From Euglena gracilis (taxonomy: Eukaryota), in NCBI GenBank assembly GCA_039621445.1, contig CP154954.1:23572954-23636953 (forward strand): a DNA stretch of 64,000 nucleotides, written 5' to 3'. Each line of letters starts with the position of its first letter. Position 1 is the first letter of the stretch. This document shows positions 10,836-34,800 of the stretch, piece by piece. A program made the translations under genes and the position numbers. The notes under the pieces are model-generated. The model saw only the letters and a program-made list of their open reading frames with translations, was not told the origin of the DNA and searched no databases.

Positions 10836-13800
10836 CAGGGGCCGAGGCAGAGCGCCGCTGCTTCTTCCCCTGAGCGCCGGGTGGCGCGAGGCCGTGGGTC
10901 ACCTGGGGGCAGGGCTGAATGTGGACGAGTCCTTCCCTCCCTCCCAGTGAGAGTGGTAGCCCCGCTTGTGTAAGAACTGTAAAAGCTGGGTAAGGACCGG
11001 GGAGGGGTGCTCAGACAGGGGGAGGAATCCCCGACATTTTTTCTCTTTCGCGCCGAAAAAAAAAAACTTCATTTTGGGGTTTTATTCTTGCCCATCTTTT
11101 CAAAAGGTTCCGAAGTCAAACTATTCTCTGAATTTCTTTGCAAAAAATCTTCAAAGTTTTGGATTTTGCAGAATTTTCAAAAGATTGATTGGGTGAGTTA
11201 CTGTAGATTTTCTGCATCTCAACGCCTTTACTTTGGAGAATCTGGGGGCTGGTGCCCAGACACGGTGCTTTGGCAGGGGGGAGGTGAGGTGATAGAAAGT
11301 GAAAGGCCTCTCCAAGACCTCACCCCCGCAGTCCTGCATGGGGTGAGCCAGGACGTCCCAGCTCAGTTACCTCTCACGCACAGCCCTGCGCGGTAGTTCG
11401 GGTTGCCGGGCTGCATACTGCGGGGCTCTGCCTTCTTCACATCCACCCGCTGCCCCAGCACCTGTCGCCGGGCCGCCAATGAAAACGGGCAAGCGAGACA
11501 GGGCCCTTCAATGCTGCGCATCTCCAACTCCATTTTTTTTGTGTTCCGGTTTGAAAATGAAAACCATTGCTTGGATCTCTCCGCACCACATTCTCCAGAA
11601 TTTGCATTTTGGGCTCCAATTGGTTTGCTTGTTGACACATTATATGCAGGTGCCCGATGCATCAATTGTGTGGCACGATGCACAGGGCTGCTTGGCTGGG
11701 AGGGGGCGAAACCAAATGGGATGGAAAGCGAACGGCGTTCTCCGCGTGGTCCTCCGACTCGAAGACAACAAACCCGCAGCCCTTCGGCCTTTTCGTGACT
11801 TTGTCGTACACAATCTCGCAGTCCACGATCTGGAGCACGGCAGTCAGGGGGGAAAGGGCAACACAAAGAGGGGATCACCAATGGATGATTGGCGATTGAA
11901 TTTCAACTCAACGTCTGTTCCGATTTCAGACTTCCCTGGTCCTCTTGGGGGCTGTTAATTGAAGTTAGAGGACATTTCATTCCCTGCGACAATGGTATTT
12001 GCTGTATAATCCATCTATCCATCCATACATTTCGACACTTACATCTGGATAGCTCTCATCAGATACAATTATTGCCTTGGTTGAAATGTAAATGGAGGGT
12101 TAATTTGAGGACAGGGCCAGTCAAAGTTCCTCTGGGGGGGGTCTTTTTTATATTGAGCACTTTGATTGTGCAGTTTAGATCCCACCTACTGATAAAGATA
12201 GGGTGCATGTCTTTTCAATTTGGGGGAGAGTACGTTACGTTCTTCAGATATTTCTGATGGAGTCTTCAAAGCAGCCATCGATCTAATACTCCCCACGAAC
12301 GGCGGACAACCCAGGAGGAGGGTGAGCAACGAGGATTGCACACATAGACGATGCGATCGGCCCGCAAAGCGGCGTCGACAGGGGTGGCCGAGTCCCCAAC
12401 GGGGATCGTGCGTTGCGCCGGAGCGAAATGTCACGCCAAAGCCGCCACCGCCGTGTGCACGACGCCCCACAGGGCCTCCAGGTAGGCCGGGTGAATGGCG
12501 TCCACCCCGGCCTGCCACACCCCCTCCCAGTCCTCCGACAGGGAATCGTGAAATGACCTTCCGGGGGGGGGGGGCCATACTACTGCTTACCGACGACCCC
12601 TGGGCAGGGGAAGGGGGGGGTCACTTTCCACTTCCAAAAAAAACCAGTCAGTTCATTTGAAAATCCAGTCAATCACCCACTTCCACCCCCCCCCCGGGGG
12701 TATCGGTCACTTTAGCCACTCGGGCCAAAATGGTTCAAAACCAATGGATTTTGGCCAAAAAAAAGCACAAAAACCTCCGGTGCCTTTGCCGCCGGGTGGC
12801 ACTTTTGGCCATTCCTGGGGGGGGGGTCCGGAGCCAAAAAAAAAAAAAACAGACAATCACTCAAAAAAACAACCAGTCAGTCACCCCCAGGGGTCGGCCA
12901 CACCTTGCGCAAAGTGTAATGTGTTTGGGGTCCAGCTCACAGGCTGGAACAAGGCAGCTTGGCTGGCTGGACCCCCCCCCCCCGGGAGGGATGAGGGTCC
13001 ACTGAGGCTTGAGCGATGCCCTGTCCTCCGCCACCCGCTGCCGTACCTCCTCCCGGACTGCCAGTACGCCGTCCATACCAGCCGCCGGGGCTCCTGTGGG
13101 GCAGACCGTCCTCCGATGGCAGCACATGTTGAGTGTGGCACAAGAGACCGGCAGATGAGGAAAGAAGAACAGACAGGTGCGTAGGGGGACAGACAGGGGC
13201 GTAGTCAGAGGGACCCCGAGTGAGGCAGTCCAGGCACTGGGCAGCGCTTGCCACGCCCAAAGCTGAATGGAAATGATGGAGGGGGGCCTTCACAAGGATT
13301 GTATGTGTGAATGGGTGTGTGTGGGTGGGTGGCTGGCTGGCTGGGTGGGTGGGTGGGTGGCTGGGTGGGTGGGTGGGTGGGTGTGGGTGTGTGTGTGTGT
13401 GTGTGTATGCGGGTGTATGCATGTGTGTGGGTGGGTGGGTGGGAGGGTGCGTGCGTGCATGCGTGTGGGTGGGTGGTGGGCGTGTGTGTGGGTGGGTGTG
13501 CATGTGTGTGTGTGTGTGTGTGTGTGTGTGTGTGTGTGTGTGTGTGTGTGTGTGTGTGTGTGTGGGGGTGTGTGTGTGTGTGGTGTGTGTGTGTTTGTGT
13601 GTGTGTGGTTGTGTGTGTGTGTGTGTGTGTGTGTGTGTGTGTGTGTGTGTGTGTGTGTGTGTGTGTGTGTGTGTGTGTGTGTGTGTGTGTGTGTGTGTGT
13701 GTGTGTGTGTGTGTGTGTGTGTGTGTGTGTGTGTGTGTGTGTGTGTGTGTGTGTGTGTGTGTGTGTGTGTGTGTGTGTGTGTGTGTGTGTGGGTGGGGGG

Positions 13801-31800: not shown

Positions 31801-34800
31801 CGACCCCTCGAAAAACCAGTCAGTCACTTTTTTGGGAAACCAGTCAGTCACTACCCCGGGGGGGGGGGGTCGGCCACTCTGGAATCCAAAGGAAATTTGA
31901 CCAAAAACATGAAAAAAGCCATTTTTTTTCCGGTGCCTTCAGCGCCGGGTCACTTAAGTGGATTTTTGCTGACCCCCCCCCCCCCCTGGGGGGGGGGGTC
32001 TGGGCCAAAAACCAGTCAGTCACTCTGAAACAACCAGTCAGCCCCCCCCCCCCCCCCCGGGGGTCAGCCAGTGACTAATGATTGACTGCCCCCCCCCCCA
32101 CCCTGGCTGTTTGGCCGATTCCCGTACTGCCCTGGTCGCCCCTGGGCTGGGACCGCCGTAGGGGGGTGGGGGGCCGGCCATGAGAGCGGCAGGGAACGCC
32201 GCACCGGGCCGGCCCCCAGCGGGGGAGGGCGCCCAGTCCGGGCTGGGGGCAGGCCCCAGCAGGGGCGTGGCCTCCGGAGGGGGGGGTCTCCGTGGGGTCT
32301 GGGGTGAGACCCCGTATTGCACCGGCATTGCACCCGCACTGCACCCGCACTGCACCCGCACTGCACCCGCACTGCACCCGCACTGCACCCGCACTGCACC
32401 CGCATTGCACCCGCACTGCACTGGAAGGTGTGCCAAATCGAGGCGGGGTGGCTGGGGAGTGTCGGGTGCCCGAGACACAACTGCAGCCCTGTGCGGCGTG
32501 TGATTTGGACGCTCGAACACAGCAGAACTTGGGCGAATAATCTTGACATTAACGCGCAAAGAAGCTATCCATTTCTTCGGATGGGTCTGTGTCTTTCACG
32601 CAAGATTCATCAAACAAAAAATAGAGGGGGGAAACCACAGGTTTGTTTGACAGGTGGAGGCCATTTACTGCAGAAAAATCTCTGAAACGTTTTGGGGTTG
32701 TGTCTAGTGCAAAGTGCTGCAATTGCGACCAGGGTGATATTTGGGGGATTGGAGAGGGCGACCGTGCCCAAAATGTGGCTGACAGCGCCAGTATTGCCGC
32801 CGGGGGGGGGGGGCGTCTCTTTCGGCCATTCCAAAAGAACAAGAACAAACCCCTTCATTCGCAGTCCAGCCGGAGGCCCCCCTCATCTGGTCTGGGGTTG
32901 TGTCACACTCCTCCGAGGCCTGAGCAAGGGGCACGCCGAGGGGCCCCATCGTCTCCCGCCTGCAGAGACATCGACGTGCACAGGGACCTCCATGGCAGTG
33001 GCAGGCAGGCAGTTGGCGGAGCGAGGCGGACACAACGCACTGCCGCGGAGAAATCATGGCATGTGGTTGACGGGTGAATGACAAGAAACCAACTGGTTTG
33101 CCCCAGGGGCTAGGCCACCACAGTACAAGCACTCACCCGCAACTTCACAACCTCGGGGCAGGAGGGAACGCAAGGGGGGTCGGAGCACACTGGGGCTTGG
33201 GGTCCGCTTTCTTCACGTCTGCCCGCTTCCCGCGGAACTCATGCACTGAGCAGCGCACCGCGCAATCCGCCCCGTCGTCGTTCTCAAATGTGACAAATGC
33301 ACAGTTCTGCAACGAACAACAAAATACCAAGCGCTCAAATTCAAATAGCAGAAAAGCTGGTGAGAACTCCTCCATGTGAACAAGCTGCATTACCGACAGG
33401 TAACGGGGGACCCCGCCTCCATGACACTCGACCTCACGTGGGGGGGGGGGCTACCAGGAATTTGCCGGTGCCCTTCTCGTGCAGCAGCTCCACAGCGGTG
33501 ACGCGGCCAAACTGCTGGAAGTGGGCTGCCAGCTCCTCCACGAGGATATCCCGTGGCAGCGCCCCGACGAAGCACCGTCGAGTCTTCACCAGCAGGTGCA
33601 TCTCATGGGCTGTTGGGCATGTGTGTGTGTGTGTGTGTGGGTGTGTGGTGTGTGGTGTGGGGGTGGTGTGTGTGTGTGTGTGTGTGTGTGGTGTGTGTGG
33701 TGTGTGTGTGTGTGTGTGTGTGTGTGTGTGTGTGTGTGTGTGTGTGTGTGTGTGTGTGTGTGTGTGTGTGTGTGTGTGTGTGTGTGTGTGTGTGTGTGTG
33801 TGTGTGTGTGGGTGTGTGTGTGTGTGTGTGTGTGTGTGTGTGTGGGTGTGGGTGGGTGGGTGGGTGGGTGGGTGGGTGGGTGGTGTGTGTGTGTGTGTGT
33901 GTGTGTGTATTGTGTGTGTGTGCGTGCTTGCGTGTTATATGTTTGTGCGTGTAAGTGTGCGCACGCGTGCCAGTGCAGCACAGGCCCTTCGGATAAGTCT
34001 TAGGGCGGTGCAAAACACACATCGACAGGAAAAAACTGAAAAAAAGAAAAACAACACGCAAAAACTGTGTGGTGATGACATCCCTGTCAGTCTCCAGAAA
34101 TTTTGGGGATTTGGGTTCAGCTTTTGTGTTGGGGCACAGATATGCAACCCCCCCCCACGTCCCACGTGGACCCTGGGCGGGAGAGGCCCGCACCAGGCAC
34201 TGCCAGCTTGACCTCCACCACCTTGCCATTGATACAGTGCTCCGAGGTGGTGAGGGCCAGTTCATCCTCCTGTGCGCGACAGGGGGACCTGCCATCACTG
34301 CCAATACCTTTGTGGAAAGCAGGAACTGTCGGAGGGAGGACAGAGAAACAAAAGGGGGCGCGACAAAACCGACTAAGAGGCAGCGCCACAACTTTTGTAA
34401 TTGAACGTTCCTGAGTGCAAGAATGGGCCTTGGGCATGGGGGAAAATCGGTGGCACCGCCAACAAAAAAATCACTGGAAATAACAATTTCACATATGGTG
34501 GAGGGGGTGCAAATATGGTGGTGGATTTTAAAGCTGGAGTGTTGTTGGGCAATACCAAAATTTGGGAATGTGAATCTCTACGTTGGTGGAAAATGCGTGC
34601 ATCTGATGTACACTTCATTTTCAGAGGCAAATTGCTAAATTTCTGGTCTAATGTTAAAATTATGGGGTTCTAGGGGCAGAGTTTTTTTTTTATCGAGCAA
34701 CTCCCAGTTTTGGTTGGGAATTCCTGATTTTGGATGTCACCGTCTTTTATCGCATATCGGTAGAGACATCAGATTTTGTAGCTAAACTTCCCCTGCCTTG

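Follow-up and report, generated by a model that had tools for sequence, protein, structure and literature searches.

A MITE-like element in a coding exon removed as a nonconventional intron in Euglena gracilis, and the possible bearing of 8-bp target-site duplications on nonconventional splicing

Are the nonconventional, non-GT-AG introns of Euglena gracilis small DNA transposons that landed in exons, and does their excision pattern of 3 nt plus 5 nt beside a terminal stem reflect an 8-bp target-site duplication (TSD)? This question is raised by a single 64-kb stretch of DNA (hereinafter the window), whose first-pass annotation read such introns as hAT-type MITEs spliced out with exactly one TSD; its observations are partly confirmed by the present analysis, which covered this one stretch, and its interpretation is partly supported. 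The window comes from the nuclear DNA of a euglenid; eukprot EG_transcript entries match its proteins at 97–100% identity. Introns were placed using joints in RNA runs together with two transcript-derived proteins, P0001 and P0004, mapped onto the window. Contigs X1 and X2 (presumed to be RNA) provided six nonconventional joints and one GT-AG joint, five of which recur in the raw RNA reads of X21; all these joints were independently fixed by the two proteins, and a search for nonconventional and GT-AG joints in the DNA run X20 found none there.

The two genes originally recognized proved to be wrongly delimited; the second combines a gene for a protein with four RRM domains and a separate gene nested within one of its introns:

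10837..35555, extending below 10837, minus strand: 4-RRM protein gene, matching P0001 (eukprot EG_transcript_8216)
11830..29139, minus strand: 17.3-kb GT-AG intron of the RRM gene, with GT..AG ends, spanned by P0001 residues 360/361
25053..28819, minus strand: nested 224-aa gene, matching P0004 (eukprot EG_transcript_27820) and RNA joints

Exact peptide blocks account for P0001 residues 1–445 over at least 15 exons in the window, where its final ~27 residues were looked for and not found; the product matches Pfam RRM_1 in four stretches (E 4e-63). In contigs of X1 and X2, the loose end found at 29140 is an exact match to 11800–11829. Besides the nested gene, which lies on the same strand, the 17.3-kb intron houses several MITEs and the first of the two originally recognized genes. 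The nested gene has nine exons separated by eight introns, all nonconventional, and encodes a protein with a VWDVDDTL motif that retrieved no Pfam family.

Together the two minus-strand genes contain 12 nonconventional introns (flanks denote matching positions between the two flanking 8-mers):

32245..32925, minus strand: RRM gene intron I6, GCT CAGGCC...GGCCTG CCCCC; P0001 residues 180/181; X2 contig piece ends at 32244
31291..32137, minus strand: RRM gene intron I7, GAC + element 31296–32134 + GGGAC
29705..30276, minus strand: RRM gene intron I10, CAG...TTG, 3+5; RNA joint 29703>30276 in X2 and X21, absent from X20
10905..11391, minus strand: RRM gene intron I14, CAGGGCTG...CAGCCCTG, 3+5; P0001 residues 422/423; flanks 4/8
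28310..28748, minus strand: nested-gene intron h1, CATAGA...TCTATG, 3+5; RNA joint 28304>28744, 6-nt slide possible; flanks 5/8
27417..28239, minus strand: nested-gene intron h2, CAAAG...TTTG, 3+5; RNA joint 27415>28239
27202..27359, minus strand: nested-gene intron h3, CAGGCT...AGCCTG, 3+6; RNA joint 27200>27359
26923..27088, minus strand: nested-gene intron h4, CAG...CTG, 3+5, no slide; RNA joint 26922>27089; flanks 3/8
26810..26899, minus strand: nested-gene intron h5, 90 nt, perfect 10-nt inverted repeat, 3+4; RNA joint 26808>26899
26141..26693, minus strand: nested-gene intron h6, atypical, CAG at +4..6 and CCG at −9..−7; P0004 residues 150/151
25473..26039, minus strand: nested-gene intron h7, CAGGGCGG...CCGCCCTG, 3+5; P0004 residue 184; flanks 5/8
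25100..25398, minus strand: nested-gene intron h8, GGGGCC...GGCCCC stem, 3+6; P0004 residues 208/209

The layout of 3 nt, stem and 5 nt reported at first pass is thus real, although the figure of about 14 introns, nearly all of this build, reduces to 12 introns, of which eight are 3+5, two 3+6, one 3+4 and one (h6, which includes a (CA)n run) atypical. Four of the 12 lose 7 or 9 nt rather than 8 beside the stem, h5 being a case where 7 nt are removed. The intron previously placed at 32261–32925 exists as I6, with its 3′ end displaced by 16 nt (really 32245; 681 nt, not 665) and true flanks of 3/8. The 8-mers that do match at 7/8 there (32258–32265/32923–32930) adjoin an unused junction; therefore, 7/8 matches can be meaningless in this G+C-rich DNA. 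A further proposed intron, 25654–25962, was ruled out, as it lies within h7 between the P0004 exons at 26039 and 25474, and corresponds to a nested element:

25659..25959, no strand assigned: inverted-repeat element nested in h7, inverted repeat 12/12; flanks 25651–25658/25960–25967, 6/8

Elements with CAG...CTG ends and 8-bp TSDs are nonetheless present in the window. We defined strict candidates as CAG...CTG pairs with an inverted-repeat identity of at least 10/12 and compared the 8-mers directly beside each pair; across the window, 6 of 211 such pairs had flanking 8-mers with at most one mismatch. Against these six, there were 0–1 matches when the 8-mers were shifted outwards by 3–20 nt (five shifts), none in registers 9–11 and 0–2 with 11 other terminal trinucleotides. 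A relaxed scan adds the last two elements below; all seven coordinate pairs singled out at first pass, among them two ordinary MITEs with perfect TSDs, contain inverted-repeat-bounded elements with the flanking 8-mers ascribed to them.

19338..19733, no strand assigned: free MITE, CAGGG...CCCTG ends, adjacent 8-mers 8/8, TSD GGCGGGGG
24066..24911, no strand assigned: free MITE, CAGGC...GCCTG ends, adjacent 8-mers 8/8, TSD CTCAGGGG
37233..37567, no strand assigned: MITE, TSD 7/8
52141..52604, no strand assigned: MITE, TSD 7/8
12539..13023, no strand assigned: CAGGG...CCCTG element, flanks 12531–12538/13024–13031, TSD 7/8; within candidate nonconventional intron 12534–13026
13258..14678, no strand assigned: 1.4-kb element, flanks 13250–13257/14679–14686, TSD 8/8, GCCACGCC; within candidate intron 13253–14681

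The free elements display a different perfect 8-mer at each site, and the MITE at 19338–19733 has relatives at 8874–8950 (96%) and 44093–44351 (79%). Transcript evidence was sought for the two candidate introns and none was found; removal of 12534–13026 joins two high-GC3 reading frames (RQRVAE|DWEGVW), and the 1.4-kb element is filled with (GT)n/(GGGT)n followed by their complements.

Small transposons that duplicate 8 bp are real in this Euglena DNA, and at least one of them, located within a coding exon, is removed from RNA as a nonconventional intron. This clear case is I7, a repeat-rich element with a 7/8 duplication in the RRM gene, and the one valid example among the five introns first put forward. 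It is skipped in both P0001 (bracketed by residues 216/218) and X2, where a contig piece begins at 32136; its inverted repeat is 13/14 and its flanks (31288–31295/32135–32142) match at 7/8. Word depth in the DNA run X20 is 1.5–3 × 10^5 inside I7 as against 30–60 outside, and reaches its highest in a second, nested element:

31331..31563, no strand assigned: 233-bp MITE nested in I7, inverted repeat 11/12, flanks 7/8

Because an X20 contig (32119–32345) crosses the right end of the I7 element into the exon, the DNA carries the element and its removal is confined to RNA. The junctions are consistent with a spacer of 3 nt ahead of CAG and one of 5 nt following CTG, and the element is absent from the mRNA. 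The claim that splicing restores the exon exactly fared less well: 3 extra nt, the codon Arg217, occur in the known transcript as well as in the X2 contig (GARTHW versus the GATHW predicted by 3+5 splicing of the window allele), and no junction reproducing GARTHW was found up to 12 nt from the end of either exon block. As the transcript is 3 nt longer than 3+5 predicts, exact restoration is not established for I7. A GAC GAC tandem may lie behind part of the 7/8 flank match.

When flank identity was compared across offsets within the window, as had been suggested, 11 nonconventional introns gave the anticipated peak at the 8-nt register (44/88 versus 22–37 at 12 other shifts; permutation against non-cognate flanks, p=0.012). 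I7 contributes most of this signal: once it is omitted, p=0.06 and mean identity falls to 3.7 of 8, the same value as for 10 GT-AG introns in the nonconventional register. Therefore, no age series from perfect to decayed TSDs is demonstrated, and the older nonconventional introns of the window retain no trace of an origin from transposons with 8-bp duplications. Likewise, a search within the window for intron termini sharing a family with free MITEs, a comparison proposed at first pass, found none; only interiors are related, that of h2 being akin to the free MITE 37233–37567 (Blast 78% over 121 bp).

These observations bear on the view that the match of 3+5 to the TSD is a coincidence, the spacing belonging to the splicing machinery, most nonconventional introns deriving from double-strand-break repair with short direct repeats or from converted conventional introns, and I7 being a MITE that fits the code by chance. 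Flank identity in old nonconventional introns that is no higher than in GT-AG introns, the four departures from 3+5 and the 7/8 match at an unused junction all speak for it, as does a case with an 8-nt direct repeat that its authors read as break repair (PMC4770533). We nevertheless consider it unlikely, since break repair leaves unexplained why repeats abut CAG...CTG inverted repeats, why non-exonic elements have identical ends and perfect 8-bp repeats, and why I7 is composed of highly repeated DNA; the register peak exactly at 8 also argues against it.

We lean instead, with reservations, toward exon-inserted MITEs with 8-bp TSDs as ready-made nonconventional introns. Non-autonomous MITE-like DNA transposons with CAG...CTG termini, 10–14-nt terminal inverted repeats (TIRs) and 8-bp TSDs would be the source, and a separate non-GT-AG splicing system of Euglena would recognize their base-paired CAG/CTG stem, with cuts falling 3 nt upstream and 5 nt (in some cases 6) downstream of it, irrespective of how the spacers read. 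As 3 and 5 add up to the length of the duplication, an element inserted into an exon, whichever way round, would be a nonconventional intron from the outset. Given spacers of 3 nt and 5–6 nt that are free in sequence (PMC12501133), the element plus one 8-bp duplicate would be removed, leaving a single copy of the 8-mer and hence the original reading frame. Most nonconventional introns would then have arisen from such elements, and the spacer rule and duplication length would be causally linked. The opposite direction, with nonconventional introns as the primary mobile entity, reinserted from circular intron RNA by reverse splicing or as cDNA, and the free MITEs as their offspring, draws on the excision of these introns as circular RNA (PMC11282704, PMC12501133). 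It appears highly improbable: reinserted intron RNA would bring its 3+5 spacer nucleotides and no fresh 8-bp duplication per target, whereas the free elements bear different, perfect 8-mers site by site, and the window already has the pattern of family copies with differing 8-bp duplications and empty sites with a single 8-mer.

As for the superfamily of these MITEs, hAT is the best fit to their ends and to the length of the duplication, an assignment that is a guess compatible with the sequence. The CAGGG ends presumably agree with the YARNG rule and look like an Ac-type hAT terminus, which would count against a non-hAT identity, and the ends of hAT elements (Ac/Ds, hobo, Hermes) likewise begin with CAG or CAGGG. 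As stated at first pass, members of this superfamily generate 8-bp TSDs, and like the window elements they have short TIRs (10–25 bp; PMC3942097); in contrast, the window elements are without a known transposase partner, a search of 20 window ORFs for a transposase or hAT domain having found none. Mobilization by Merlin, P or an undescribed superfamily is a possibility of some weight, if the lesser one. For E. gracilis itself, two families of Merlin elements that make 8-bp TSDs have been reported, and in the literature searched Euglena, hAT and transposase are joined only in the available text of that report (PMC8101967). However, Merlin TIRs end in 5′-GG (PMC8101967), whereas the window elements have CAG directly beside perfect duplications.

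Much of this picture is already published: the MITE origin, TSD-like repeats and the 3/5–6 code for spacer lengths have all appeared before, as has a recently acquired intron with an 8-nt direct repeat; the link between 3+5 and TSD length was not found in the literature searched. The experimentally derived code (PMC12501133, PNAS 2025) has non-GT-AG borders, a CAG in positions +4..6 that pairs with a CTG in positions −8..−6 (as the first-pass annotation had it), a 3-nt 5′ spacer, a 5–6-nt 3′ spacer of random sequence and an acceptor exon beginning with a purine; the window introns fit it (eight 3+5, two 3+6, purine in 11/11). Its discussion voices the idea of an insertion-tolerating removal system; in its available text, ‘slidable’ introns with direct repeats are left out of the motif analysis and 3+5 is not related to a duplication length. 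The MITE-origin hypothesis (PMC3935182, 2013; PMC11282704, 2024), mentioned at first pass as a transposon origin, shares with the window TIRs, TSD-like junction repeats and new insertion sites, but differs, in the text available, in doing without duplication length, superfamily or free elements; as of 2013, euglenids had yielded no known transposable element (PMC3935182). Intron 4 of gapC in E. agilis ACOI 323 is a recently gained nonconventional intron, absent in other strains, whose 8-nt direct repeats at the junctions equal the prediction of an 8-bp TSD, although it comes from another species and was read by its authors as a footprint of double-strand-break repair (PMC4770533, 2016). The introner elements of Micromonas and Aureococcus are, like our proposal, MITE-like, introns upon insertion and equipped with a TSD in the splice geometry, but undergo spliceosomal removal with GT/GC-AG borders, one site being co-opted from a 3-nt TSD (described in PMC11282704); the window introns, in contrast, are without spliceosomal signals. 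Finally, Amoebophrya introners, from a different lineage and with 3–5-nt direct repeats of variable position and, in the available text, no fixed 3+5 rule, resemble the window introns in being non-canonical, with 8–20-nt inverted repeats, direct repeats overlapping the borders and a hairpin that joins them (PMC7789003).

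The window (G+C ~50–60%, with long (GT)n and poly-G/C runs) is read as nuclear DNA of Euglena, most likely E. gracilis, and two transcript-derived proteins, P0001 (eukprot EG_transcript_8216, 472 aa) and P0004 (EG_transcript_27820, 224 aa), match its exons with 97–100% identity. P0001, which contains four RRM domains (Pfam RRM_1, E 4e-63), traces a long gene in exact peptide blocks, and its last exon (residues 446–472) finds no match within the window. Together the two proteins define the following arrangement:

35555 to below 10837, minus strand: RRM gene (P0001), at least 15 exons
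11830–29139, minus strand: GT-AG intron of the RRM gene, 17,310 nt, between P0001 residues 360 and 361
28819–25053, minus strand (that of the host): nested P0004 gene, nine exons, inside the 11830–29139 intron

The 17,310-nt intron (ends GTGTGC...CTCCAG) is supported by contigs of two public sequencing runs, X1 and X2, which exit the window at 29140 and continue exactly at 11800–11829. What the first-pass annotation had taken for a single second gene (25654–33195) is in fact two, the RRM gene and the nested P0004 gene; its first gene also lies within the 11830–29139 intron. Intron types are split very unevenly between host and nested gene: 11 of the 15 introns of the RRM gene are GT-AG (one known by its donor alone) and 4 are nonconventional (NC), and all eight of the P0004 gene are NC.

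The splice junctions rest on two independent sources. Reads were mapped over 26700–33600, with run X21 on record as RNA, X20 being DNA, and X1 and X2 taken as RNA by guess only. Contigs of X1/X2 contain six non-GT-AG joints (26808>26899, 26922>27089, 27200>27359, 27415>28239, 28304>28744, and 29703>30276) and the GT-AG joint 29246>29646; five of these seven (four NC and the GT-AG one) recur in raw reads of X21, and none is found in X20 across the mapped span. P0001 and P0004 independently set the same junctions and supply the remaining ones, and all 12 NC introns are fixed in this way. Back-joints of the kind expected if NC introns leave as circular RNA, later than the conventional introns, do not occur among the joints listed for 26700–33600. 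At 30690–31173 and 32423–32802, where the intron DNA is single-copy, X20 shows many substitutions and small indels relative to the window, suggesting a second allele or strain.

Eight of the 12 NC introns have 3 nt before the stem and 5 nt after it (3+5), namely h1, h2, h4, and h7 of the nested gene (whose introns are h1–h8) and all four of the RRM gene:

32245–32925, minus strand: I6, NC intron, 3+5
31291–32137, minus strand: I7, NC intron, 3+5
29705–30276, minus strand: I10, NC intron, 3+5
10905–11391, minus strand: I14, NC intron, 3+5

The remaining layouts are 3+6 (h3, h8), 3+4 (h5), and atypical (h6); the fit to the 3-nt spacer is partly built in, because, where an intron could slide between equivalent positions, the one leaving 3 nt ahead of the stem was taken. 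The NC introns are removed without GT/GC-AG borders, and a purine opens the acceptor exon in 11 of 11. CAG at +4..6 is paired with CTG at −8..−6 in 5 of the 12 (I6, I7, I14, h4, h7) and, with the 3′ motif shifted by one nt, in h3 and h5; the others carry variants (I10 CAG/TTG, h2 CAA/TTG, h1 CAT/ATG, h8 GGG/CCC, h6 CAG/CCG). Stem identity over 14 nt ranges from 6 to 13 in the 11 introns scored (h6 left out). The experimentally defined splicing code, as given in excerpts of PMC12501133, comprises the CAG/CTG motif, a strict 3-nt 5′ spacer, a 5–6-nt 3′ spacer, an acceptor purine, and a required stem; the introns described here agree with it in CAG-type pairing, spacers, and acceptor purine. The layout initially read from the bare sequence was accordingly right and already known as that code. 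One of them, h5 (26810–26899), is 90 nt long with a perfect 10-nt inverted repeat and loses 7 rather than 8 nt beside its stem; by the same excerpts a 3+4 layout is poorly spliced, yet the contigs for h5 show no other form.

The second element of the earlier proposal, CAG...CTG elements flanked by 8-bp target-site duplications (TSDs), is real for one element class. A strict scan of the window for CAG...CTG pairs (terminal identity ≥10/12, 60–3000 nt apart) returned 211, whose flank identity is bimodal, with 0–5 matches in 205 and 7–8 in 6. For the same 211 pairs, 8-mers moved outwards yielded 0–1 such cases and registers 9–11 none, and eleven other terminal trinucleotides yielded 0–2. The six elements thus combine terminal inverted repeats (TIRs) with a TSD of fixed length, as MITEs do, and the 8-nt register is specific. 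Relaxing the repeat threshold added two more:

19338–19733: MITE, flanks 8/8
24066–24911: MITE, flanks 8/8
31296–32134: element of intron I7, flanks 7/8
31331–31563: 233-bp MITE nested in 31296–32134, flanks 7/8
37233–37567: MITE, flanks 7/8
52141–52604: MITE, flanks 7/8
12539–13023: element added under the relaxed threshold, flanks 7/8
13258–14678: element added under the relaxed threshold, flanks 8/8

A scan for TIRs and TSDs with any terminus (13,174 pairs) was discarded as poly-G/C noise, its controls matching as often as the test. The 1.4-kb element at 13258–14678, with its perfect duplication, consists almost throughout of microsatellite sequence, (GT)n/(GGGT)n over the first half and the complementary (AC)n/(ACCC)n over the rest, which together form a long imperfect palindrome. 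The MITE at 19338–19733 has 2–3 relatives within the window. Intron ends had been expected to cluster with free MITEs; within the window, none of the NC-intron termini falls in a family with a free element, the likeness being confined to interiors, i.e., that of h2 with the MITE at 37233–37567 (78% over 121 bp) and a weak mutual one among 12539–13023, 25659–25959, and I7. Two larger repeats are also present, a tandem array at 693–7820 (unit ~1.37 kb, copies 88–96% alike, each unit containing runs of a 66-bp sub-repeat) and a segmental duplication of ~3.8 kb (44325–48125 and 55839–61205; ~98% identity, same orientation, 11.5 kb apart), whose ORFs match no Pfam family.

Of the five introns originally offered as examples, all have the flanking 8-mers ascribed to them at the sequence level, and 31291–32137 (I7) holds as an intron. 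At 32261–32925 the 5′ junction stands and the 3′ junction does not: the X2 contig piece ends at 32244, where P0001 residue 181 starts, i.e., 16 nt further on, so that the reported 7/8 match adjoins an unused junction, the true flanking 8-mers of 32245–32925 agreeing at 3/8. The segment 25654–25962 lies wholly within the real h7 (25473–26039, with ends CAGGGCGG...CCGCCCTG); rather than an intron, it is an inverted-repeat element nested in one. The other two examples fall in a proposed gene at 12–16 kb, for which protein searches gave no transcript or protein match, and a search of representative proteins gave four weak, repetitive matches (36–46% identity). Removal of 12534–13026 would obey the code and fuse two protein-like high-GC3 frames (…RQRVAE/DWEGVW…), followed by 27 residues and a stop, making it a likely candidate NC intron on its sequence; the side frames of 13253–14681, a possible NC intron, reach the downstream one of these frames only via a further intron.

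Duplication remnants are kept only weakly by the verified NC introns. Over the 8 nt on either side of the stem, 11 of them average 4.0/8 against 2.98 for non-cognate flanks (permutation p=0.012; p=0.06 without I7), and a register scan of the same 11 peaks at the 8-nt register (44/88 versus 22–37 at 12 other shifts). Ten GT-AG introns of the RRM gene reach 3.7/8 in this register because of their own consensus, a value equal to that of the NC introns without I7, and stem identity is not significantly correlated with flank identity (rho 0.47, p=0.14; 11 NC introns). The 'age series' of decaying TSDs that had been postulated is therefore not demonstrated in the window. The main rival explanation, coincidence together with other modes of intron birth, accommodates the equality with GT-AG introns and has less to say of the peak at the 8-nt register; we regard it as unlikely.

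I7 brings the element class and the 3+5 layout together in one exonic case. In the direction of the gene its sequence is …CCAGGGGC/GAC CAGGGCAGTACGGG … CCCGTACAGCCCTG GGGAC/GACGCACTGG… (slashes mark the junctions), and its element has a 13/14 inverted repeat with the 233-bp MITE nested inside. Word depth in X20, which is not copy number, is 1.5–3e5 at 31320–31550 and 31782–32243 versus 30–60 in neighboring bins, and the nested high-depth MITE has 0 copies in metagenome contigs. An X20 contig (32119–32345) spans the right end of the element into the exon; therefore, the element is present in DNA and absent only from RNA. No empty allele was seen at the site, X20 also carrying the right end here. 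One codon at I7 is at odds with the exact restoration of the exon foreseen by the first-pass annotation: 3+5 splicing of the window allele predicts G-A-T-H-W, P0001 reads G-A-R-T-H-W with an extra Arg217, and the X2 contig, departing from the window after 32136, carries the same extra codon. Junctions placed up to 12 nt from the end of either exon block all fail to yield this codon of P0001. A 3-nt allelic indel beside the junction, on the acceptor side, probably accounts for it, with X2 deriving from another allele since the variant 32158 G>A is common to X2 and X20; consequently, the I7 junction given for the window allele is a predicted one, and, given such an indel, the 7/8 flank match is helped in part by a GAC GAC tandem. 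In X21, 212 raw RNA reads connect 31351–31369 with 32041–32059 on opposite strands, many running into poly-G/poly-C; the cause is either a hairpin within I7 or an artefact that the library acquired at the homopolymers.

On balance, we favor a mechanism, independent of superfamily, whereby a MITE with CAG...CTG ends would insert and duplicate 8 bp; its inverted repeats would pair in the pre-mRNA as the stem needed by the NC splicing system; cuts would fall 3 nt upstream of this stem and 5 nt downstream of it, irrespective of spacer sequence; and the element plus 8 nt would be removed, leaving a single copy of the target. Its generality, its causal link, and its exactness we infer. A broader proposition, which we entertain more tentatively, is that the second splicing system may be an RNA-level excision matched to one transposon class, its 3-nt and 5-nt cuts equaling the 8-bp TSD, such that every exon insertion, whichever its orientation and with hardly a restriction on its site, would be erased to the base. 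The equation of spacers with the TSD is encouraged rather than established by the window, which gives one solid case. How euglenid NC introns arose and how they are removed has been an open question since the 1990s; were the spacers halves of an 8-bp TSD, the question of origin would become a simple genome-wide test on existing data, and the splicing code would be readable as a host (or transposon) adaptation neutralizing exon insertions. Intron gain in Euglenozoa would also be tied to a concrete transposon class for the first time, and a search for the transposase of that class would have a starting point.

As to the superfamily, hAT may be named as a best guess, held with some reserve. Elements of this superfamily have the terminal motif YARNG and the target preference nTnnnnAn, and the CAGGG ends seen here are reminiscent of this motif and of the Ac terminus. 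Of the 8 elements, 3 have CAGGG at each end, 3 have it at a single end, and the other 2 end in CAGGC; judged by eye, the T of position 2 and the A of position 7 are present in about half of the TSDs inspected, a very small sample of 6. 8-bp TSDs and 10–25-bp TIRs define hAT (excerpts of PMC3942097), and the element class has both an 8-bp TSD and short TIRs. Among 20 long ORFs of the window no Pfam family, and thus no transposase of an autonomous hAT partner, was found. The one paper retrieved that joins Euglena, hAT, and transposase reports, in its excerpted text, Merlin elements with 8-bp TSDs in E. gracilis (PMC8101967). In the same text, Merlin has TIRs ending in 5′-GG and TSDs of 8–9 bp; the elements described here agree with it in TSD length but differ in their termini, with CAG directly beside perfect duplications, which speaks against a Merlin identity.

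Across the full-text literature search (supplements and subscription journals being outside its scope), no paper equated the 3-nt and 5-nt spacers with the halves of an 8-bp TSD or named hAT for Euglena introns. The component ideas have precedents, in each case as far as the excerpts go: a MITE origin of NC introns was proposed in 2013 (PMC3935182), TSD-like junction repeats and new insertions were described in a 2024 review (PMC11282704), and a removal machinery mitigating transposon insertions is discussed in PMC12501133. Similarly, a newly gained gapC intron, missing in other strains, has eight-nucleotide direct repeats that were interpreted as DSB repair (excerpts of PMC4770533). In E. agilis, NC introns make up ~72% of all introns, and 84.4% of introns are 'slidable' via direct repeats and were left out of the motif analysis (excerpts of PMC12501133); if the spacers are TSD halves, the youngest introns would be exactly these slidable ones.
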